Shown here: in pieces, positions 912-58,799 of the stretch
How the letters are laid out: every line of letters begins with the position of its first letter
Numbering within the stretch: the stretch's first letter is position 1
IMG/VR virus record: IMGVR_UViG_2767802354_000003
Location: 4,685-68,684 of that record
Length of the DNA stretch: 64,000 nt
Origin: a virus
Lineage: Duplodnaviria; Caudoviricetes
Direction: 5' to 3' (one strand)
Notes under the pieces: model-generated
The model's database searches: none
Seen by the model: only the letters and a program-made list of their open reading frames with translations
Told to the model about the DNA's origin: nothing
Made by a program: the position numbers and the translations under genes

Positions 912-3900
912 CAGATCCCCAAGCGCACGCGCAGCACGTTGTTGGCATCGAAGACCTGAATCAGGTTGTTGGTCAGCGTCATGCGCCCGCCGCCCGAGAC
1001 AGGCGCATTGAGCTGGATCTCCCCTGTGCGGAAATTCAGTCGCAGCACCGGCACCCCGCCCGGCCCCTTCGCGTCCGACTCCAGCCAGTCCGCAAACTTG
1101 GCGCTGCCGATGGATGCCGTCTTGATGAAGGCCGAGTTGATGTAGGTCACCCCGTCCTGAATCACGAATGGCACGCTGGTGGAGCCGTTGGCCTCGTTGA
1201 GCACCGCAACCCGCTGGGCGGCCAGCAGGATCTGGCTGGTGATCACGCCCTGGTTGTTTTCCACCCCGACACCGATGCCGGCCATGTACGGCTTGCCATC
1301 CACGGTCAGCTGGGTCTTGATGGTGTACATGGCCGCGAGAGCGCTCTTGAGCGCCTCCACCTCGACCAGGGAGCCGTCATCACTCTCGATCTTGTCCAGC
1401 AGCGCCTGAGAGAGCTGGGTCTCCGTGATCTGGTCCCGGAGATAGTCCAGGATCAGCGATGCATCCGAGCTGGCCTTGCCCTGCACGCCCGATACCGTGG
1501 GATACCACGGCCCGGCCAGGCCGTTCTTGTCCACCAGCCGCGCCCAGAAGAAGAACGCGGCGCCGGCGGCCAGGCCCATCATCGTGTGCGTGTTCTGCGG
1601 GTAGGAGAAGTCGCCCAGCTTGATGGCCTGCGCCAGGTTGTTGGTCTGGCTGTACCAAAGCTCGGTGCGCTGGATGATGTTGGCGCCTTCCGGGAAGCCC
1701 CAGGACAGACCGATACCGAACACTTGGCTGACGGCCGTCAAGTTGGTGACCGCTGGCGGCGCCGACAGAATGCCGGCCAGCACCGTGGGCGCCGATTGCG
1801 TCCAGGCGCTGGGCACCTCGATGGCGTTGACGGCACGCACGCGGGCCACATAGGTGCCCGCATAAGCGCCGTCGATCTCCAGGCCCGTGGTCGTGGTACG
1901 ACCAGCGCGCACCCAGTCGCTGTCATTGCGGCGCCACTCCACCTCATAGAGCACTGCGGACTCGGCCGCCTCCCAGCGGATGGCGGCTGTCTGCGAGCTG
2001 ATGCCCTGGCGCACCACATTGAAGCTGCTGAGCGTGACGCTGCCAGGCGCGGGCTGCACCTTGGGCGGCACCACCGTGATGGGGCGCGGGTCCAGGCGGG
2101 TGCCGTGGTCGATGGCAGAAAACTTGCCTGGCTCGTGCTGCACGGCCGTCACGTCAAACGTGATGCCCTCGCCTTCGGTCACGCTCATGACCGTGTAGAC
2201 CTGGGTCTTGAGCGTGGGCGCCTCCAATGCCCAGACCGACTGCGCACGCGGCGCGGCCGAGAACTGAGTCTCTACCTCCACGGTCATGGTCGTGCCTGGC
2301 AGCGAGATCATGTCGGCCGTCAGCTCCGAGCTGTCCACGGTATAGCTCGTCATGTCACTCGTGAGCAGCACGCCGTAGGCCTTGCTGACCTTGCGCGTCT
2401 CGGCCACGCCCGAGGGCAGGATCACGGTGAGCTCGTCACCGTACTGGATGCCCAGCTCGGCATCGATCTCGATGGTCGACTTGGTGGCGGAGCGGATGCG
2501 GCCGCCGATCCGGCGACCGGCGCGCATGTTGTCGGCAATGCGAATGATCTGGCCAGGGGCGCACAAGGTGCCGTCAAGCCCGACCGAGAACGAGACCGAT
2601 TGCGTCTCGCGCTTGGCCGTGAGCAAGGCCCACTGGCCCACGCGGTAGGCCTGAGACTCGCTGGTGCAGCCAAAGGCCGAGATCTCGACCTGGCGCACGC
2701 CATAGCGGGCCACACCTTCATCGTCCTGCACATAGACCAGCTTCTGGCGCGCCATGTCGTCCATGTCGTTGTACGACACCAGGGCCACGGTGTTGCGGTC
2801 CTTGCGACGGCTGCCTGAGTAGACAAAACGGCCGTCGATCACATTGGCCTGTGTATACGTGTACACAGGATCGCGCGGCATGTCGGCCACGGGCACGGCC
2901 GTGCCGGCAGCCCAGTACACCATGCCCCGGAACACCGAGCACAGATCCTGCAGCACGCGGGTGGCATCGCCGCGCTGCTGCAGGTAGACATTGCAGGTAA
3001 AGCGCGGCTCCGTACCGCCACGGCCATCGGGCACCAGCTCATCGCAGTAGGCGGCGATCTGGTACAGCGCCCACTTGTTCAGCCAGGCTGCGGGGATGCG
3101 CTTGCCCAGGCCGTAGCGCTCGTTCAGCACCAGGTCATAAAACACCCAGGCCGGATTGTTGCTGTAGGCCGTCTTGAAAGTGCCATCCCACACGCCCGTG
3201 TAGATGCGCGTGGCGGGATCATAGTTAGCGGGCACTTTGATGATGCGACCGCGCACATGGTAGGCACGCGCCGGTACAGCATTGAACTGGCTGGCATCGA
3301 TCTGCAGACCGATCAGGGCCGACATGGGGTAACGCAACCTGGCATCAATCACCTCGGCCAGGCTGTCGATCACCGTGGTGTCGCTGATCTTGTCAGATGT
3401 GGCATTGGCCGTGAGCCGGCGCACGCGCACCACCCAGCCGCTGGCAGCCACAGGCAGATCAATACGGTGCGTGCGGCGATACTGGGCCGTGGTCTTGCCG
3501 CTGAAGGAAGTGTTGATCACCTCCACCCAGGCGCCGCCATCGGTTTGCAGGTCGATGGCGTACTGCACCGAATAGCCATTGATATCGCCCGTACTGGTGT
3601 CCACCGAGCGCAGGCCGTTGACTCCCAGAGTCACGCGCACGGCCGACAGGTTGCGGTTGTTGACCGCACGCACCCAGGGCACGCCGAACTTGAGCTCCAC
3701 ATTCACGCTGGCCGTGGACTCCGAGGCCGGAAAGCCAGGGACAGGATCCTGCCACTGCGTTCCTGCCCGGAAATCAACCTGCACCCCTTCAAAATTCATG
3801 CTGCCATCGGCGTTCTGCAGCGGCGTCTCGTTCAGGTAGATGCTTTGCAGGCCGTTGACCAGGCCGGAGATCTCGCCCTCGCTGAGCAGATCGAGCACGC

Positions 3901-26259: not shown

Positions 26260-26511
26260 TCACTCCACCTCCTTGGTTGAGGTGGATGGCTGCGCCAGCT
26301 CAGGCCAAATCTGGGTGTACTGGTCGGGGAACAGATCCCGCCTAGTCACAGTAGTGAGCTTTTCAAGGCTTGCAGCGCAAGCAGCAGGGATCGGGCGCCG
26401 TCCGCTGATCCACTGGGATATCTCGGAAGGGGATTTGCCTAGGGCTCGCGCCAGAGCAGTCGGGCCACCTGCCTCGGTGCTGGCTCGCTTTGCGAATGCT
26501 GCATGTTTCAT
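26260..26511 (-). CDS. cro: Cro-like HTH repressor
   Basis: GGPTALARALGKSPSEISQWISGRRPIP HTH, divergent from cI. Confidence 0.88.
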   Translation of the reverse strand: MKHAAFAKRASTEAGGPTALARALGKSPSEISQWISGRRPIPAACAASLEKLTTVTRRDLFPDQYTQIWPELAQPSTSTKEVE

Positions 26512-26520
26512 TCATAAAAT

Positions 26521-26581
26521 TTAGCATAGCTAATCATAAAAATCAAGCCACGCTAAATTCATTAATTATTAGCATCGCTAA
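26521..26581. promoter_or_regulatory. OR operators and pR
   Basis: TTAGCATAGCTAA (26521-26533), CAAGCCACGCTAA (26544-26556), TTAGCATCGCTAA (26569-26581); - strand TTGATT-N17-TAAATT just upstream of cro. Confidence 0.75.
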
Positions 26582-26582
26582 C

Positions 26583-27341
26583 ATGAAAGAATGGACTACT
26601 GAGGAAGAGGCTGCAAACCTGCGTCGCCTTCTTACCGGCGTTAAGAACAAGGCTCAGTTCGCCAAGGACAATGGAGTTCCAGGCGGTGCGTCCATGCTTT
26701 CCCAACACCAAAGTGGGCATCGCCCCATCAGCTTGGATGCGGCCAAAGCGTATGCAAAAGGGCTGGGTATCGGAATCGGAGAGATTGCACCTCGCTTTGC
26801 AAAGCTGGTGTCTGACGTCTCGGAGCTTGCTCAGCCAGCGCCTTACCCAAGGGGTCACGAGATAGACATGTCAGCGTACAGTGCTGTTCCGATGTATCAC
26901 GCACCTGACGCTGTAATTGTTCCTCTGCTCTCTAACTGCGGCAGCATGGGCCCCGGTTCTGAGTTGCTGGAGTCAGATGTCATTGTGGGTGACTTGGCCC
27001 TATCCCCACACTGGATCAATCAGCAGATCAGGCCCCAGAACCCGCAAGAGCTGCGCTTCATACACGCATATGGCGACAGCATGGCCCCAACATTCACAGA
27101 TGGCGATGTCCTGCTCGTTGACACAGGGCTTAGTGCACGTGACCCCAGTTCACGCGAAGGCGTCTACGTTTTGCGGGCGAATGATCGAACTTTCATCAAG
27201 CGTGTCACCCCCACCTTTGACGGCAAGCTGCAGGTGACCAGCGACAACCCCAGCGCCAAGACTGTACAAACACTGAATGGCGATCATCAAGTGGATGTGG
27301 TTGGTCGGGTGGTGTGGGCCTGGAATGGGAAAAGGCTGTAA
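26583..27341 (+). CDS. cI: CI-like repressor (HTH + S24 peptidase)
   Basis: N-terminal HTH; GDSMAPT..DGDVLLVD, FIKRV and VVGRVV S24 motifs. Confidence 0.93.
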   Translation: MKEWTTEEEAANLRRLLTGVKNKAQFAKDNGVPGGASMLSQHQSGHRPISLDAAKAYAKGLGIGIGEIAPRFAKLVSDVSELAQPAPYPRGHEIDMSAYSAVPMYHAPDAVIVPLLSNCGSMGPGSELLESDVIVGDLALSPHWINQQIRPQNPQELRFIHAYGDSMAPTFTDGDVLLVDTGLSARDPSSREGVYVLRANDRTFIKRVTPTFDGKLQVTSDNPSAKTVQTLNGDHQVDVVGRVVWAWNGKRL

Positions 27342-27379
27342 TCGGTGCGACTGATTCAGATCTTCCTAAGAGGTGCCTC

Positions 27380-27889
27380 ATGAAAAATAACTGTGCAGCA
27401 TTGCTTCCGGTTATTTTCTACTTCTGCGCCGCCCCCGCCCTGGGCCAGCAAACATGGCAGGCCGACCTCAGCAGCTACGTGGGCCCGGTCGCAAGAGTCG
27501 GGCTTCCTTCAGAAGGCGCCACGAGTCGCTTGGTTTTGATTGCATTTGAATACGCGACACAGTGCAACCCGCTATTTACCTACGTAGAACTGCAAGGCCC
27601 AAAGTTCGGAGTAGCTGAAAAGCAGTCTTCACTGCCTCCATCAAGCATCGGCGGAGCCATCAATGACAAGCGCTACTCAGGCAACTCCGCAGCAATGACG
27701 CTTTATAGCAATGGGATTGAGGTGGGTTTTGCCATGCCTGATGAGATGGCGATGACACTTGCATCCGATCCAATCACCTCGATCTCATTTACAACACCCA
27801 CTGGCAAGGAAATACCGCTTCCAACAGCTGGTCTAAGCAACGCCGCTGCAAAGGCACTAGACGCCTGCACGAAAAAGGTTTTTTTCTAG
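27380..27889 (+). CDS. Exported hypothetical protein (169 aa) in immunity region
   Basis: Signal peptide ending APALG; GAGG RBS; directly downstream of cI. Confidence 0.7.
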   Translation: MKNNCAALLPVIFYFCAAPALGQQTWQADLSSYVGPVARVGLPSEGATSRLVLIAFEYATQCNPLFTYVELQGPKFGVAEKQSSLPPSSIGGAINDKRYSGNSAAMTLYSNGIEVGFAMPDEMAMTLASDPITSISFTTPTGKEIPLPTAGLSNAAAKALDACTKKVFF

Positions 27890-28036
27890 GACTACTGGTT
27901 CTCGCTGTTTCACGGAAGCAATGGGTGCAGGCAGACTTGCGGGCGCTGGCCTGCATTGACCATCATTCCGAGACCCGATGACCGGCCTGCTTGTACTAAT
28001 CACAGACAGCAAACGACCCAAAGCAGACAGCCAAAT

Positions 28037-28094
28037 TACTAACGAATGAGTTCAGCGGTCGCCGCAGGCGGTCCGCTTGGACGATGGGTTAGGC
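28037..28094 (-). other. Integron attC site (58 bp)
   Basis: - strand: R'' GCCTAAC, CCATC, L'' GTCCAAGC, central hairpin, L' GCTGAAC, TCATTC, R' GTTAGTA; TAA stop of upstream gene lies in R''. Confidence 0.88.
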
Positions 28095-28442
28095 ACGGAG
28101 CTGCTTCCTTGAGAGCAGCCGAACGATTGGCAGAAGTACCCAAACCAGAACTCCAACTAAAAGAAGCTGGGCGAAGCCAATCCATGTTCTACCAGCTGAG
28201 TAGCCTCCACTGAAACCGGCAAAAATGGCTAAAAGCATGAACGCAAACCACCCGATGCCACCAATGATGAGCCGCCCGAGAGCTTGAAGGACAGCATCCG
28301 GCCCCGTGATTTTGGGCTTCAAGACACTAGGTACAGACGTTGGCTTCCACCCCTCGGCGTTCGAAAAGTTTGCGCCACAGTACTCGCACTCCTGCGCCTG
28401 TGCGGCGATCTCCTTTTCACAGTGGGGGCAGTACGCACTCAT
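28089..28442 (-). CDS. Integron cassette gene: zinc-ribbon plus two-TM membrane protein (117 aa)
   Basis: CPHC...CEYC N-terminus, two hydrophobic helices; GTTAGGC core site at 28449-28455 upstream of ATG. Confidence 0.8.
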   Translation of the reverse strand: MSAYCPHCEKEIAAQAQECEYCGANFSNAEGWKPTSVPSVLKPKITGPDAVLQALGRLIIGGIGWFAFMLLAIFAGFSGGYSAGRTWIGFAQLLLVGVLVWVLLPIVRLLSRKQLRA

Positions 28443-28857
28443 GTAGTGGCCTAACTAGATTTAGGAGACATGCGATGTACATGTTTAACTCGCCTAGTAG
28501 TGTATGAGTGCACAACCCGACAGGCAAATTCGCTGTGATTGTGTTTAGAAAAGCCTAAAAATTTTGATCTCAGTCTTTGGTGGATACTGAAGATCAATGT
28601 CCGAAAGACTGCTTCTGGCCGAACTCAGTCGGTCATGAACAGCAGCCTGGTCAGCCACAGCCGGCACAGGCGGTCAGCTCGACCGGAATACGCGCAGACC
28701 TTCCGTGAGCATTCTGCACAGCGCTGCTTTGCCATCACTTGTCGAGGACACAACGTAGAAGCGCTCATTGCTATCTGTAGCCGGCCCGAACTGGCTGTCT
28801 CAAAGCCCGCATCAGCGGGCTTTTTTGCATCTTTGTGATGTGCGCGCATGATCAATA

Positions 28858-28920
28858 GTAGCAGCGCTTCATTTTATATTTAGCAAAGCTATTGCTTATT
28901 TAGTTTAGCAAAGCTACATT
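28858..28920 (+). promoter_or_regulatory. OL operators and pL promoter
   Basis: TTAGCAAAGCTA at 28880 and 28905 plus a degenerate copy at 28858; TTGCTT(28892)-N17-TACATT(28915). Confidence 0.75.
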
Positions 28921-29404: not shown

Positions 29405-29532
29405 CTGCGGCTTCAGCTGCGACAACATGGTGGGGCGTCTATTTTTTCAAGAGCACCGTTTAAGGTCATTTAAAAGCGTACTGTGGGACAAGGCAGTCAA
29501 TCTTGACCAGCCACCTTAGACCGGAGGTCTAT

Positions 29533-29694
29533 TTGTCAGGTAACCCCATTCCCATCTCTACCCCATCTTTTTGGAACACCTTGAAGCTGATGTTTTTTAT
29601 CACTGATGGGCTACCAGCTCCACAGCAACAAGGCAAGCCTCGTGTCCCTAAAGAAAAGAATGAGGAAGAGCAGCAGCAGCAACGCAAACAGTAG
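29533..29694 (+). CDS. Microprotein A1 (53 aa, TTG start)
   Basis: Start 1 nt after the SD hairpin; ungapped similarity to A2. Confidence 0.6.
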   Translation: MSGNPIPISTPSFWNTLKLMFFITDGLPAPQQQGKPRVPKEKNEEEQQQQRKQ

Positions 29695-29749
29695 CGAAAG
29701 AGAGCTACTTTTTAACTCAGGGTTGCGCTACCGCCCTAGCAAGCACACC

Positions 29750-29770
29750 AGCCACCTCCGGGTGGCTTTT
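29750..29770 (+). terminator. GCCACC/GGTGGC-family intrinsic terminator (also 30080, 30954, 31531, 32426)
   Basis: Same 6-7 bp stem with variable loop and T tract, five times in 2.7 kb. Confidence 0.8.
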
Positions 29771-29855
29771 GCTTGCGCCGTTTAAGGTCATTTAAAAGCG
29801 TAATGTGGACGCATGCGAGTCACTTTTGCTTCGCAGCTTTAGACCGGAGGTCTAT

Positions 29856-30035
29856 ATGTTTCCACTCCTTGTGTACCAAAGATATGTCGCGTTTTGGCAT
29901 GACATGTGGTCGATCATCCTTGAGCCCATCTCTGAGCTCCCGCCAAGCCCTTCAAGCTTCGATCAAGAGCCTTCAGCAAAGCCAGAAACGCCACCATCCA
30001 CGCTCGGCCCAGATGCAGCCAACGACAAGCCCTGA
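29856..30035 (+). CDS. Microprotein B1 (59 aa)
   Basis: ATG after SD hairpin; 25/59 identical to B2. Confidence 0.7.
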   Translation: MFPLLVYQRYVAFWHDMWSIILEPISELPPSPSSFDQEPSAKPETPPSTLGPDAANDKP

Positions 30036-30242
30036 TTGACACGTTCACGCCCCAGACTAAGCAGAAAGCCATGATCCTCAGCCACCTTTTCAGGTGGCTT
30101 TTCTTTGAGGAAACTGCTGCGGTTTAAGGCCTATTCGAGCATTGCTGACATGGACTTTGAGACCGCCGTTTAAGGTCATTAAAAAGAGTACCGTGGACTC
30201 ATGTGGCCTATCTTGGACCGCTGCCATAGACCGGAGGTCTAT

Positions 30243-30461
30243 ATGTCTTTCATCGACAAAACTATCTTCAACATCCGCTCCCGGCTTCCCGCCGTGAAAC
30301 AGGAAGTCGATTCCCGGAGCGTGGCGGATGACGACCGAATCTTTCACACGCCATTTCAAACGGATGCACAGCTGCAGGAGGAATCACCTGAGCAGATGCT
30401 GCGCAAAAAAACGAACCGCCTTTTGCTGCAAGCGGTCCTCAACAAAATCTCTGCCGCTTGA
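30243..30461 (+). CDS. Microprotein C (72 aa)
   Basis: ATG after SD hairpin. Confidence 0.65.
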   Translation: MSFIDKTIFNIRSRLPAVKQEVDSRSVADDDRIFHTPFQTDAQLQEESPEQMLRKKTNRLLLQAVLNKISAA

Positions 30462-30485
30462 GCAAGCTTCTGACCGGAGGTCTAT

Positions 30486-30665
30486 ATGTTTTCACTACTT
30501 GGCTACAAACGTCAGTCCGAGTTCTGGCGTGATATGTGGGTGATGCTCCTCGAGCCGATTTCAAAGATTCAACCCATCGAACCCAGTCTCGATTCACCAC
30601 TCGCACCGACGCCAAAAGCCCCACAGCCCAGCTCCGAAACACCTGCTGTCAACGACAAGGCGTGA
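30486..30665 (+). CDS. Microprotein B2 (59 aa; not in ORF track)
   Basis: MFSLLGYKRQSEFWRDMWVMLLEPIS...NDKA; paralog of B1. Confidence 0.7.
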   Translation: MFSLLGYKRQSEFWRDMWVMLLEPISKIQPIEPSLDSPLAPTPKAPQPSSETPAVNDKA

Positions 30666-30724
30666 CAGCACCATACGGAGACGCAGCGAGCCCGTAGCTC
30701 GCGCGTGTCAGTCTGGAGGTCTAT

Positions 30725-30907
30725 ATGTCAGTAAGCCGCATCCCATCTTCATTCCTGAGGGTTTGGAGAACAGTCAGACGAGTCTTCGCCAGAGGCGAGC
30801 CACTCCCCAGTCCACCCAACATCGAACAGTGCGGACCTCCTGAAAAAGACAAGAGGAGGCAAGAGGAGAGGCAATCGCGCATGCGCCATAGCTATCGATA
30901 CTGGTAG
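30725..30907 (+). CDS. Microprotein A2 (60 aa)
   Basis: GGAGGTCTATATG start context; paralog of A1. Confidence 0.6.
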   Translation: MSVSRIPSSFLRVWRTVRRVFARGEPLPSPPNIEQCGPPEKDKRRQEERQSRMRHSYRYW

Positions 30908-31258: not shown

Positions 31259-31364
31259 TCTGGCGTGACTGCTCGAGCAAGTACGGCAACTCAGGAATGG
31301 GCCTGGGTTGGCGGCAGTCACGAGCACGGCGCATCCGCGTCGTGGCGACAGTGGTCACGCCAGA
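31259..31364 (+). ncRNA. Putative structured RNA, family X copy 1
   Basis: 15-bp closing stem with G-U pairs plus two internal hairpins; homologous to copies 2 and 3; strand inferred from G-U pairs and operon direction. Confidence 0.6.
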
Positions 31365-31570
31365 GGGTTTAACAACTTTTCTTAACGTAAATAAGCTTCA
31401 GATGTGGTTCGTCGCGGCGAGCGAATGCGACAAAAGCACTCATTGCGCAGCATCAGACGATAGGCTGTGAATTTATTTCAGTAACATCCGCCTTAGGCCC
31501 AGCTATTAGGACGTAGGTGGAGCCTCTTACGCCACCCACAAGGTGGCTTTTTTTGTCCTGAATTCAGGGC

Positions 31571-31682
31571 CATCCGGCGTTACTGCTTGAACAGGCATGC
31601 CCCCAAGAATTTGCCTGGGTCGCCGTCTATTGGGAGCGCGGCGCGGCTTCCGCGTCGTGAGCGACAGCGGTCACGCCAGATG
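31571..31682 (+). ncRNA. Putative structured RNA, family X copy 2
   Basis: CATCCGGCGTTACTGCT/AGCGGTCACGCCAGATG closing stem; 10-bp inner hairpin. Confidence 0.55.
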
Positions 31683-31763
31683 ACGTAGAGCCCGTTTATG
31701 AGCCCACACACATCTTGATTCCGTCACTCTCTTTGGGCAAAATTTGCGTCACGTACCTGTTTT

Positions 31764-31876
31764 GCCGGGCCTGGGGTCACAGACTCCTTTCACTTCCGCA
31801 ACTTGCCCAGGCATGACCAAATAGGTCGCCGGCTTTTTATTCGTGCCCGCAGCAACTGCTTGCGGGCTTTTCTTTT
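31764..31876 (+). ncRNA. Putative sRNA, family Z copy 1
   Basis: GCCGG/CCGGC, GCCTGGG/CCCAGGC, GACC/GGTC three-stem junction plus terminator. Confidence 0.6.
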
Positions 31877-32050
31877 GCCGCCGGCAGTTCAAGCTAAAAA
31901 ACAGGATACACATAGTGGAAAACAGGCCCCCTAGATGCGCACCACCACAGCCGCATGAGTAGACATGGGGCTATCCAGTTTGGTGTAAGACGAGCTCCTA
32001 TTGATCACCCAAAAAGCATCGTGCAGAATTCGACGCCATCTACCTGTTAC

Positions 32051-32163
32051 GCCGGGCCTGGGGTTAACTCCTCCCTCCCTTTCTGACCTCTTCCCCAGGC
32101 ATGGCCCGAAAGGGTCACCGGCTCTTTACTCAAGCCCGCAGCTACCGCTCGCGGGCTTTTTTT
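32051..32163 (+). ncRNA. Putative sRNA, family Z copy 2 (CU-rich anti-SD loop)
   Basis: Same junction; loop CTCCTCCCTCCCTTTCTGACCTCTT; GAAA tetraloop; terminator. Confidence 0.65.
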
Positions 32164-32179
32164 GCCCACAGGAGACCAC

Positions 32180-32236
32180 ATGCACTCAAGTCCAATCACC
32201 ACCCGCACGACAAAACTGCTACTTGCCAAGCAATAG
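32180..32236 (+). pseudogene. Truncated paralog of the 45-aa TM peptide (TGG to TAG)
   Basis: MHSSPITTRTTKLLLAKQ* then ALTGLGL, aligning to MHSTQTTAYNTKLLLAAQWALTGLGL. Confidence 0.6.
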
Positions 32237-32467
32237 GCGCTCACAGGCTTAGGCCTCGCATGTACCTTCCCCCGCAGGGCTATAGCTAGACCACATCAAA
32301 TAGTAAATATGAATTAATTCTTGAACACCAATAGAAAATGTTGACAACATCAGATGTTAGTGAAAGTATTCACCCTAAGTAAGTCTTTGAATGAGCGCTG
32401 CTCGTGTGTGAGTGAAGCCTCTTTAAGCCACCCTCCGCAGGGTGGCTTTTTTTGCACCAAAGTCAGT

Positions 32468-32580
32468 GCCATCCGGTGTGACCACTCGAGCAGGTACGGC
32501 AGTTCAGGAATAGGCCTGGGCGGGCGGCAATTAGGAACGCGGCACTTTGCGTCGTGGCGACAGTGGTCACACCAGATGGC
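32468..32580 (+). ncRNA. Putative structured RNA, family X copy 3
   Basis: 18/19-bp closing stem with compensatory changes relative to copy 1. Confidence 0.6.
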
Positions 32581-32589
32581 AAGTCAGGT

Positions 32590-32850
32590 TTACTTCTTCC
32601 CACCACCGACAAGGTAGACGTTGCCCTCGGCCACGTTATTGAGAAGCTCGCGATACGCATTCACCAAGTGATCGCGGCCAAGCCTGAACTCGGGATCCGT
32701 TCTATCAGGTCCGTCCTGATGCTTAGCATCCAGCTGTGCAGCGCGCAGCTCTCTCGCCGCTTGATGGGCAGTCTCGCGCGGTAGCGCCTTGACGACTGCC
32801 GTCAAGATCATCGACAGCGCAGCAAATGCGCCAGATTCCTCCTGGGTCAT
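32590..32850 (-). CDS. Hypothetical protein (86 aa), antisense insert
   Basis: AGACTGGAGGT RBS context; helical protein. Confidence 0.6.
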   Translation of the reverse strand: MTQEESGAFAALSMILTAVVKALPRETAHQAARELRAAQLDAKHQDGPDRTDPEFRLGRDHLVNAYRELLNNVAEGNVYLVGGGKK

Positions 32851-32887
32851 GAGGCACCTCCAGTCTGATGACCCATTCTAGTTTCCA

Positions 32888-32997
32888 GCCGGGCCTGGGG
32901 TTTATCTCCTCCCTCCCTCTCTGACCCATTCCCCAGGCAGACCCGAAAGGTCACCGGCTCTTTATTCAAGCCCGCAGCAAACGCTCGCGGGCTTTTT
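32888..32997 (+). ncRNA. Putative sRNA, family Z copy 3
   Basis: Same junction; loop ATCTCCTCCCTCCCTCTCTGACC; terminator. Confidence 0.65.
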
Positions 32998-33019
32998 CGT
33001 TACCCACACAGGAGATTCC

Positions 33020-33157
33020 ATGCATTCGACTCAAACCACCGCCTACAACACAAAGCTGCTGCTCGCGGCGCAATGGGCTCTTACCGGCCTCGGCCTGTTC
33101 TGCCTGGTCGGCGCAGCCGTGGTGATCGCACTCACGCCAGAACCCTGGCCCCTCTGA
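33020..33157 (+). CDS. Small single-TM peptide (45 aa; not in ORF track)
   Basis: CAGGAG RBS; WALTGLGLFCLVGAAVVIAL hydrophobic segment. Confidence 0.65.
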   Translation: MHSTQTTAYNTKLLLAAQWALTGLGLFCLVGAAVVIALTPEPWPL

Positions 33158-43424: not shown

Positions 43425-44450
43425 CTATGCAATGCCGTCCAGCCGCTCCGCAATTTGGTCGGCGGTCGGGTTGTAATAAGTCATCGCCCGCTTTGGGTCT
43501 GTCCAACCAAAGACCTTGCACAGGTCGAGCACGTGCAGCTTTTGCGCCATCCGCGTTGCGGCGGTGTGGCGAGAATCGTGAAAAGTAAAACCGTCCAGCC
43601 CGGCACGCTGGCGGTTTCTCCTAAAGATCGCATCCAGCACAGATGCATCTATATTGAACACGAATTCATCGTCGTTCCCTCGCAAGGATTCCAAGTTGCG
43701 CAATGCAGCTCTGGTCAAGGGCACATTGCGGCCCATGCCTGTTTTTGTCTGTCCTTTGTGCAGGACGCAAAAATTCTTGCGTACATCCTTCCAACGCAAC
43801 TTAGTCACCTCCCCTGCTCTCATGCCGGTTTGCAGAGCAGCAATGAAGCATCGAGCAGCAATCTGCTTTGCCTTCGTGATGCCACCTGAGCGCGACCACT
43901 CCATCTCCCTAAGCATCTTGCGAATCTCAACCCCTTCAATAATCCTCTCTCGGCTATGGGGTGTAGAGGGCCTGCTCACATCCGTCATTGGATTGCGAGT
44001 AATCCAGTGCCATTCCTTGCGTGCGTACTCCAGAACATTGTTCACCAGCGCCATTTCGCGCAGCACGGTTGAGTCCTTTACGGACTTCCTTCGTGCGTTC
44101 TTCCACTGGATAAGGTCTTGCTCGTCCAGTTCGGCAATGGTTCGCTCACCTGGCCATTTAGGGTGTTTCGTAGTGATTGCCTCAATCCGAATCTGCTCCC
44201 AGCGCCAGCCACGCTTATCAGGCGAGACCTCTTCCTTGTACTTGTTCATGGCGTCATTGAGGGTCTTCGACTCCCCGTGCAACTTGGCGCCAGCCTTGCC
44301 GCCTTTGGCTGCAGCCCTCAGCTCTATAAGCCTGATGCGTCCCCATTCCTGCGCCTCTCGCTGGGTATTGAACGTGGAACTATCTCGCGCTCCGTCAAAC
44401 TCAACCTGTTGACGCCATTTTCCAGATACAGTTTTAGTGGGTTTTCTCAT
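43425..44450 (-). CDS. int: Phage tyrosine integrase
   Basis: TGMRAGE (R), FHDSRH (HxxR) and MTYY catalytic motifs. Confidence 0.95.
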   Translation of the reverse strand: MRKPTKTVSGKWRQQVEFDGARDSSTFNTQREAQEWGRIRLIELRAAAKGGKAGAKLHGESKTLNDAMNKYKEEVSPDKRGWRWEQIRIEAITTKHPKWPGERTIAELDEQDLIQWKNARRKSVKDSTVLREMALVNNVLEYARKEWHWITRNPMTDVSRPSTPHSRERIIEGVEIRKMLREMEWSRSGGITKAKQIAARCFIAALQTGMRAGEVTKLRWKDVRKNFCVLHKGQTKTGMGRNVPLTRAALRNLESLRGNDDEFVFNIDASVLDAIFRRNRQRAGLDGFTFHDSRHTAATRMAQKLHVLDLCKVFGWTDPKRAMTYYNPTADQIAERLDGIA

Positions 44451-44541
44451 TGCTGCGGGGTGCAAAAATTGGGCGAAATTGGGCGCTGAGTGTGTGCAAA
44501 AGGTGTTTTTTGCTGCAACCCTGCGCCTACCCCGGATAGCA

Positions 44542-44554
44542 TAAGTCTTTGATT
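44542..44554 (-). promoter_or_regulatory. IHF consensus site in att arm
   Basis: AATCAA-AGAC-TTA matches WATCAANNNNTTR. Confidence 0.6.
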
Positions 44555-44595
44555 TATTTAAAAAAGTGCAGCTATTGCACAATCTTGAAACCCTG

Positions 44596-57729: not shown

Positions 57730-58198
57730 GTCGTGAGCAGCCCTCGGTGGCTGGCTGCTATCCGCCAACCTAGGACTGTCGCTGACCGCCACTAAGGCGA
57801 CCTTGCCTGTTTAAATCCAGCGCTTTGCTGCTACCTCTGATGGGCATCCATTGGGCACGCGAGCGCCAATGAGGTTGGCCGATACATAGCTTCCGATTAC
57901 AGCAATCACGAGCTGTACTGCTTGTCCTGCGTACGGAACAAAATGCCATGAAAGATTAAACAGAATAAGCGTAGCCAAGCCAGTAAAAATGCCAAGGACG
58001 AAGCCCTGCTTGTACAAGAAAAGTGTTTGCCCAAGGCAAGGCACTTTCTGCAAAACTTCACCTCGAAGACGTTGCAATAGAGACACGGTCACTCCAGTGA
58101 TATTTGGCATTCATTGTGAAATTCATCCGCAACCGAAGTCAACAACCCAATGACCGCTCATGGCTGGCAGCAGCCAGCCACCGAGGGCTGCTCACGAC
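57730..58198. repeat. Perfect 30-bp inverted repeat flanking one gene
   Basis: GTCGTGAGCAGCCCTCGGTGGCTGGCTGCT at 57730-57759 and its reverse complement at 58169-58198. Confidence 0.9.
57811..58110 (-). CDS. Small two-TM membrane protein (99 aa)
   Basis: Two hydrophobic helices, lower GC. Confidence 0.5.
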   Translation of the reverse strand: MPNITGVTVSLLQRLRGEVLQKVPCLGQTLFLYKQGFVLGIFTGLATLILFNLSWHFVPYAGQAVQLVIAVIGSYVSANLIGARVPNGCPSEVAAKRWI

Positions 58199-58233
58199 CC
58201 TAAGCAGGCAAAAGCAGCCCACTTCGTTAATAG

Positions 58234-58578
58234 TCAATCCAGTGGTCGAAGCATCGCTGCAACGGGAAGCACTCTAGGGGCGTCACCTTCAAATCCACAA
58301 ACCTCTATCCCGCTAAGCAGGCCTCCGCTTTCATATATGAATGCGCCAGCCAATTGATCTTGATCGTTAAAAAGAAAGTCTCCCAAGATATGCACGCCTG
58401 GAGGAGCCGGATTGTGGCCATCCAGCTGAAAGTCAATGCTGGCGCAACCGCATACACAACGCCAAGGCGTAACTTGCAAAGATTCAAGTTGCCCAAGAAA
58501 TGCCTTTGCTTCGGGGACTCCGTTCTCTAGCATCCAGCGAGCCAGCGACATTTCTGCAACCGTTAGAGAGCGATTCAT
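58234..58578 (-). CDS. Hypothetical protein, cassette-like
   Basis: CVCGCASIDF and GIEV motifs; GTTAGAC at 58611-58617 upstream. Confidence 0.65.
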   Translation of the reverse strand: MNRSLTVAEMSLARWMLENGVPEAKAFLGQLESLQVTPWRCVCGCASIDFQLDGHNPAPPGVHILGDFLFNDQDQLAGAFIYESGGLLSGIEVCGFEGDAPRVLPVAAMLRPLD

Positions 58579-58799
58579 TTCTAAGCCATATGGAGAGATC
58601 AACGCATCCAGTCTAACGTTCCCTCGGAACCGTTGTGAGGGAGCAGAGCGACTGCTACTGGCCGAAAGGAGCCTGCCAGGGAGTGACCTCGGTAGCCAGG
58701 GATGATTATCTTCTCAGTCAATCCTTGATCGGAGCTGTTGCCGCTCTGATAGCGCGCATTTGGCACAGATGATCAATGTTGCCGGCACATCCATTTCAA

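Follow-up and report, generated by a model that had tools for sequence, protein, structure and literature searches.

A probable integrase-less integron platform with a single cassette in the immunity region of a lambda-like Comamonas prophage

The window, a 64,000-nucleotide stretch of the IMG/VR virus record IMGVR_UViG_2767802354_000003, is part of a Comamonas provirus with a lambda-like gene order. The minus strand at 28013-28620 is probably an integron platform that lacks the integrase gene (intI), holds one gene cassette, and serves as an accessory module of this prophage. The platform would be composed of three parts, namely a docking site of the attI type that includes a promoter-like element, the single cassette, and the original right flank of attI. 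According to the scheme that we favor, a single loss of intI would have given rise to the orphan platform. Its cassettes would since have been swapped by attI x attC recombination, with the integron integrase (IntI) supplied in trans by IntI-positive hosts. In the lysogen, the cassette gene would be transcribed from the attI-borne promoter. The features are listed in Table 1, where a slash in a sequence marks the recombination point, as it does throughout the text.

Table 1. Features of the putative platform and its surroundings (window positions unless another locus is named)
Feature	Position	Strand	Description
Putative intI-less platform	28013-28620	-	docking site, one cassette and right flank
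Left arm of orphan platform	28560-28620	-	replaces the intI start; begins with GGCCAGAAGCAGTC at 28607-28620
attI homologue (assigned from boxes and spacing)	28451-28559	-	box 1 TTTAGG-N5-CTAAA at 28544-28559; core CTAAATCTAG/TTAG at 28451-28464
Possible sigma-70-type promoter	28499-28527	-	TTGCCT, 17 nt, TACACT; reads into the cassette; in conserved alignment blocks
Integron gene cassette proper, 412 bp	28043-28454	-	from TT of G/TTAGGC to G of G/TTAGTA
Cassette ORF, 117 aa	28089-28442	-	N-terminal CxxC...CxxC zinc ribbon and two predicted TM helices
attC, 58 bp	28037-28094	-	R'' 28088-28094; L'' GTCCAAGC; L' GCTGAAC; R' 28037-28043
Right flank D (TTAGTAATTTGGCTGTCTGCTTTGGGTCGT)	28013-28042	-	original right side of attI; ends in GCTTTGGGTCG
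Boundary motifs, window	28607-28620 and 28014-28024
Boundary motifs, L031	5132 and 5756
Boundary motifs, L069	1920 and 1275
Boundary motifs, L035	4408 and 5016
Boundary motifs, L036	1620 and 2073
Cro/YdaS-like gene	26260-26511	-	Pfam
CI-like repressor gene	26490-27341	+	HTH and S24-peptidase (Pfam)
191-aa ORF	27314-27889	+	lies past cI, in convergent orientation to the cassette; no family match

The cassette and its attC site

On the minus strand, the 5' end of the cassette reads ...CTCCTAAATCTAG/TTAGGCCACTAC, and the ATG of its gene follows at 28440-28442. The GTTAGGC at 28449-28455 is complementary to the R'' box (GCCTAAC), and the stop codon TAA (28089-28091) falls inside R''. An earlier note on this DNA had located GTTAGGC, ATG, ORF, R'', and R' in this arrangement, and all of them are present. 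Two hydrophobic helices occupy the C-terminal half of the 117-aa product, and Pfam zinc-ribbon matches at residues 4-25 are weak and lie under the curated cut-offs. With that qualification on the zinc ribbon, the earlier description of a Zn-ribbon gene with two transmembrane helices, ending in R'', is upheld.

The order 3' of R'' on the minus strand is CCATC, GTCCAAGC, an 18-nt centre, GCTGAAC, TCATTC, and G/TTAGTA. The bottom strand of the cassette is the plus strand, whose fold is a stem of attC-like shape that carries additional bases on its L'' side. One pair of the L''/L' stem is broken by an A, where the Comamonas testosteroni copy has a C, and R' pairs with R'' over five of the seven positions. 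The window attC may therefore recombine poorly. The fold energy of the 71-nt attC stretch was not better than that of shuffled sequences (z about -0.9 on either strand). Rfam, which contains no attC model, gave nothing relevant for the site in either the gathering or the E-value mode.

Relatives of the site were searched for at the DNA level in 401 genomes of the family of C. testosteroni. The 58-nt attC was matched at 77-91% identity in dozens of these genomes, often in several copies with 0.4-2 kb between them or at contig ends. Conservation in the aligned copies spans exactly R'' to R', with none outside. For a covariance model (R1), we used 23 attC sites, all from other Comamonadaceae genomes; the window site and its near-identical counterpart in C. 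testosteroni ATCC 11996 were excluded. In the R1 structure, 91% of the cells were paired, compared with at most 41% in slid-partner controls. Covariation is present in the family and is strong at two pairs, both at pair 15-47 (AU in 11, GC in 11) and at pair 23-40 (GC in 18, CG in 5). R1 matched the window once, at 28034-28096 on the minus strand (64.8 bits, E 2e-16, also with the filters off), and the next-best match had an E-value of 1.9. The same model found 14 co-oriented sites in L032 (genome G341), the first lying about 400 bp from intI, and six sites adjoining a frameshifted intI in L033 (genome G180). Both of these intI genes score above the TIGR02249 cut-off. Because R1 matches the window site as well as the arrays beside intI in G341 and G180, the window attC is, judged by its sequence, a member of the Comamonadaceae chromosomal integron attC family. 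The earlier note had claimed a textbook 58-bp attC and proposed a model search as a check; the family covariation and the single R1 match at that site bear the claim out.

The 117-aa protein is rare. It has two close clusters among 5.8 billion proteins and about 15-20 full-length relatives at 30-52% identity. The protein atlas returned only unnamed zinc-ribbon clusters for it, and in IMG/VR neither the protein nor the attI region has a second copy. The JGI metagenome contig L056 carries a complete integron whose first cassette encodes a 73%-identical relative. At the beginning of this contig is the N-terminal part of an integron integrase (TIGR02249, 72.7 bits over 84 aa), followed by attI, the homologous cassette, an attC (R1, 48 bits), a second cassette, and another attC. 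The attI region reads ...CCAAATCTAG/TTAGGCTCCCCTACATG ahead of the homologous ORF, which is broken by a stop. The window and L056 are about 80% identical in DNA from the AAATCTAG/TTAGG attI core to a point inside R'', so that the homology comprises the cassette only. A 41%-identical relative is also encoded by a cassette between attC sites, in the array of L058. Because both relatives sit in arrays, the cassette reading is confirmed with its boundaries, and window 28043-28454 (minus strand) is a true integron gene cassette as far as its sequence can tell. The complete cassette with G/TT boundaries that had been proposed thus has the limits of the L056 homology.

The attI-type docking site and its recurrence with other cassettes

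The 110 bp upstream of the cassette carry the two-box signature of intI-adjacent attI sites. They belong to a conserved non-coding element (U), the upstream part of the block shared with C. testosteroni ATCC 11996 that is described below. In G341, the strand opposite to intI reads AAATTTTAGGTTTGCCTAAAC by the intI start and, 95 nt further on, GTCGTCTAAATCTAG/TTAGCC. Both boxes also occur in G180, G211, and five further intI-adjacent regions. Their spacing by the intI start is about 95 nt in L032, L033, L061-L063, and L068, and wider in L065 and L013; in the window it is 95 nt. The junction AAATCTAG/TTAG is the conserved attI core beside intI in related chromosomal integrons, and it places the crossover point in the window between 28455 and 28454. 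The two-box pattern matched the window once and 100 shuffles not at all, and the core pattern alone matched once versus 0.01 expected. An nhmmer profile of eight true attI sites had its best window match here, with a weak score (E 0.13) because the centre of attI is variable. Since both boxes and their spacing agree with the intI-adjacent sites, U is, on these two short boxes and their spacing, an attI homologue.

This assignment changes the interpretation of the insertion point. The earlier note held that the window has no attI, which is wrong in view of the two-box homologue, and it explained the cassette by IntI-mediated insertion at a secondary GWT (attG) site. That explanation is not supported, as the junction is the attI core and is reused by other cassettes. 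The target that it reconstructed, AATCTAG/TTAGTAATT, has the right sequence, as seen from the C. halotolerans flanks, but it represents an attI and not a chance phage site.

U also contains a TTGCCT-17-TAYAST block that is conserved across platform copies. The candidate promoter scores 8/12 in the window, which is under the scan threshold, and 9/12 in the C. halotolerans copy.

No intI was detected by TIGR02249 in the window, as had been noted before, or in the whole 68.7-kb provirus record, and tblastn found no intI remnant in the DNA upstream of the cassette. The left arm of about 60 nt is present in every platform copy and missing beside true intI genes. Flank D follows a different cassette in L035, and variants of it follow the cassettes of L036, L037, and L058. 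C. testosteroni ATCC 11996 has the same cassette at 98% identity within a 608-bp shared block (window 28013-28620). This block extends beyond the cassette by 165 bp upstream and 24-30 bp downstream, and its surroundings are unrelated in the two genomes. The cassette ORF of the ATCC 11996 copy (L001) is four codons shorter.

A search with an IUPAC pattern derived from U located the element in three metagenome contigs and five species-representative genomes. The C. halotolerans copy (L035) of U ends with TCTAAATCAAG/TTAG; behind it come a different cassette (116-aa membrane protein, attC 40.6 bits) and then the downstream flank that the window also has, TTAGTAATTTGGCTGTCTGCTCAGGGTCG. The junction in Paenacidovorax caeni (L036) is GTCTAAATCTAG/TTAG, and the cassette there encodes a 65-aa membrane protein and has an attC of 43 bits. 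Yet another gene is present at the platform junction of the metagenome contig L055, and L037 has two attC sites at the platform. All copies share one left arm in place of intI; therefore, a single origin of the platform is suggested. Variants of U and D co-vary (the window type in L035, the P. caeni type in L037) while the cassettes differ, which argues for cassette exchange at the junction after the platform had originated. Such exchange would require IntI in trans from a host, by way of insertion or precise loss.

Among the platform hosts, C. testosteroni NFYY023 and P. caeni possess intI, and C. testosteroni ATCC 11996, C. halotolerans, and Comamonas sp. B-9 (G001, G402, and G403) are free of it. 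The ATCC 11996 copy lies after tail-fibre and endolysin genes, 36 kb from the position that corresponds to the window platform in a sister prophage of the window provirus. In C. halotolerans, a P2-like prophage harbors the copy, with portal/terminase genes on one side and an AriA/OLD-like gene on the other. The latter adjoins the platform (L035, 2335-4194, minus strand) and encodes a 619-aa ATPase (PADLOC AriA 230 bits, Pfam AAA_15). The copy of Comamonas sp. B-9 is surrounded by ordinary chromosomal genes, and the platform is therefore not phage-specific.

Two loci of intI-positive hosts have features of their own. On the P. caeni R-24608 contig (L036, 2594 bp), cassette DNA flanks one intI on both sides. 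An opposite-strand attC lies upstream of the intI 5' end, which is the usual arrangement, the ordinary array is on that side, and the orphan-type attI platform with one cassette begins about 70 bp past the intI stop codon. In C. testosteroni NFYY023 (L034), the attI region at 3435-3560 has a degraded core, TTTATTTAGG; an IS30-family transposase gene directly follows the attI region, and a phage-type integrase gene is located about 700 bp upstream.

Empty-site alleles, which the earlier note had suggested looking for, were not found. The pattern that joins U to D, CTAAATCWAGTTAGYRAAT, identified no empty platform in 185,579 species-representative genomes, where it had 14 chance matches in unrelated phyla and none in Comamonadaceae.

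Prophage setting, cargo, and boundary motifs

The window provirus shares long stretches, at 92-99% identity, with a C. testosteroni ATCC 11996 prophage. The map of the window provirus is lambda-like, with tail J, tape measure, major head protein, TerL, and replication genes, followed by the immunity genes. On the far side of the platform are a terminator, operator-like repeats, small early genes, an exonuclease gene, and an integrase gene (43425-44582). The platform thus has the repressor gene on one side and the early-left operon on the other, which is the position of morons in prophage immunity regions. The rexAB genes of lambda lie on the same side of the repressor gene. The immunity-region, rexAB-side location given by the earlier note is accordingly correct, with the cassette about 750 bp beyond the cI-like gene. 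In the phage GenBank collection, only the cI region was matched, in Acidovorax phage AP1.

Several repeats were observed in this part of the provirus. The 13-nt sequence TAGCTTTGCTAAA occurs as two direct repeats whose starts are separated by 25 nt; they resemble repressor operators (28879-28916, minus strand), and a bidirectional-looking terminator hairpin (28802-28827) is situated between them and the platform. The same 25-nt stretch was considered as a tRNA or att piece and rejected, as it is a generic terminator hairpin recurring in many genomes. Five tandem small-ORF units, 239-387 bp apart, occupy 29441-30731 on the plus strand. Each begins at the hairpin TAGACC-GGA-GGTCTA, which overlaps the ribosome-binding site and ATG, and three share a leader of about 100 nt (repeat families D2, D3, D5, and D6). 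The region 31300-33150 has few long ORFs and contains direct repeats (D1, D4, D7, D10, and D12) of 24-90 nt that are dispersed and accompanied by terminator-like hairpins; this region is also present in the sister prophage (L031) at 92-95% identity.

PADLOC and Pfam assigned no function to the platform cassette proteins, and PADLOC gave only a match to a TM region (E 4e-4). Small membrane proteins are encoded by three of the four fully read platform cassettes, and two copies occupy accessory or defence positions of prophages. A protective role in the lysogen is ranked first for the cargo, with low confidence. We would guess that this small membrane protein is advantageous to the lysogen, perhaps through exclusion of other phages.

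The platform copies are bracketed by GGCCAGWAGCAGTC on the 5' side and GCTYWGGGTCG on the 3' side, 450-820 nt apart. The same motifs bracket unrelated modules. The place of window 28031-28606 is taken in the ATCC 11996 sister prophage by a GNAT gene, which lies on the other strand, and a third prophage has an ORF of about 200 aa at the same backbone position (L069). Three related prophages accordingly carry different single-gene modules between the boundary motifs at one backbone position. Another module with these motifs contains a 122-aa ORF. The relaxed 5' motif, GGCCAGWAGCAGWC, occurs nine times in the ATCC 11996 genome, compared with a calculated chance expectation of about 0.16. The boundary motifs may constitute a separate module-exchange site, and the unrelated modules between them are hints of a second, undescribed layer of module exchange.

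The module with the 122-aa ORF (58234-58602) is located in the window at 58195-58663 on the minus strand. It is limited by GGCCAGTAGCAGTC (58650-58663) and GCTTAGGGTCG (58195-58205), and an identical module is found in L072 (G001:C55). The ORF has no family match; GTTAGAC stands just ahead of it, and R1 finds no attC there. We also considered the boundary motifs as a high-copy REP element. This was rejected, as the composite motif is rare and there was no empty hairpin slot in five genomes.

Alternative origins and relation to known systems

The alternative that deserves the most weight, although we regard it as unlikely, is that the element is an inert relic. In this case, ordinary or illegitimate recombination would have brought part of a chromosomal integron, namely attI, the first cassette, and the array end, into the phage, where it would now be inactive, and the different cassettes of the other copies would be independent captures or the result of differential loss from a longer ancestral array. 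The lack of an integrase in the window and in three host genomes fits this explanation, as do the failure to find an empty site, the slight degradation of the window attC, and the state of the cassette ORF, shortened in L001 and broken in L056. Replacement of the whole unit by the GNAT gene in the sister prophage also looks like ordinary mosaic exchange. However, the left arm that is common to all orphan copies and absent from true integrons points to one origin, and the precise attI/cassette junctions with varied cassettes require IntI-type recombination even under loss. Furthermore, true arrays have 6-14 or more cassettes, versus one or two in the orphan copies.

It is very improbable that IntI placed a free cassette at a secondary GWT site of the phage, yielding a SALIN, a single attC without integron-integrase. 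This pathway is experimentally established in E. coli (bioRxiv 10.1101/2022.09.11.507474), and it would account for the G/TT junctions, the single attC, and the absence of a nearby intI. Nevertheless, the target is homologous to attI and has the two boxes with the correct spacing, and other cassettes use it in other species and contexts. In addition, the unit shared with ATCC 11996 at 98% identity is the 608-bp block and not the 412-bp cassette. As attI is present, the attG route is not needed for the window element. We give practically no credence to a non-integron origin, in which a small moron gene is followed by a terminator-like palindrome that resembles attC by chance. The unremarkable fold energy and the Rfam result would agree with it, but the covariance-model E-value, the occurrence of the attC family in arrays beside intI, and the homologous cassette in the complete integron of L056 oppose it.

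The reading as an integrase-less platform with exchanged cassettes can be extended further. Possibly, although we hold this only tentatively, the orphan attI platform moves as a discrete unit, bounded by the motifs described above, from one Comamonas prophage or island to another and serves there as a docking site. Phages without integron integrase would then sample the cassettes of IntI-positive hosts and carry this cargo to IntI-negative strains. If IntI acting in trans can use the platforms, chromosomal integron cargo would have a route into integron-free strains by way of temperate phages. Integron cassettes are reported to include anti-phage genes (bioRxiv 10.1101/2024.07.02.601686; 10.1101/2024.07.02.601719). 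More generally, a lone cassette in a phage need not mean insertion at a secondary site, because an integrase-less attI can travel with the phage.

Single attC sites and attC clusters without integron-integrase are known as SALINs and CALINs, respectively (Cury et al. 2016, PMC4889954; bioRxiv 10.1101/2022.09.11.507474), and Loot et al. defined SALINs together with the attG route (bioRxiv 10.1101/2022.09.11.507474). The platform resembles a SALIN in having one attC-bearing cassette and no intI within reach, and IntegronFinder at calin-threshold 1 would class it as such. It differs in that its cassette is headed by an attI homologue and in that other copies of the site hold other cassettes. A software class such as SALIN therefore pools elements of differing origin.

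Integron parts have been described in phages. Qi et al. 2023 reported integrons, In0, and CALINs in phage genomes, demonstrated that IntI1 recombines phage attC sites (PMC9892861), and described a Shewanella prophage CALIN headed by its own attI (PMC9892861, section 3.3). The Shewanella prophage M16-3 and the window provirus are alike in that an attI-headed, integrase-less cassette unit lies within a prophage (PMC9892861). However, M16-3 encodes IntI and its CALIN has at least two attC sites, whereas the window prophage has no IntI and one cassette. The window-type orphan platform is also found in several species with different cargo, and several of the hosts are IntI-free. Because phage-borne integron parts are already published, the window element is a well-documented new example and not a new kind of element. 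We found no published description of one orphan platform that recurs with changing cargo in IntI-less hosts.

Close counterparts are also the chromosomal integrons of Comamonadaceae (for example L032 and L033, with attC sites of 60-65 nt), which have the same attC family, the same attI boxes, and the core CTAAWTCTAG/TTAG. Unlike these integrons, the window element has an unrelated 60-nt arm in place of intI, a single cassette, and a prophage location. With respect to that location, it is comparable to the rexAB-type morons of lambda and to prophage defence hotspots, in which an accessory gene stands beside the repressor gene. However, the window cassette is convergent with the cI operon and is not co-transcribed with it.
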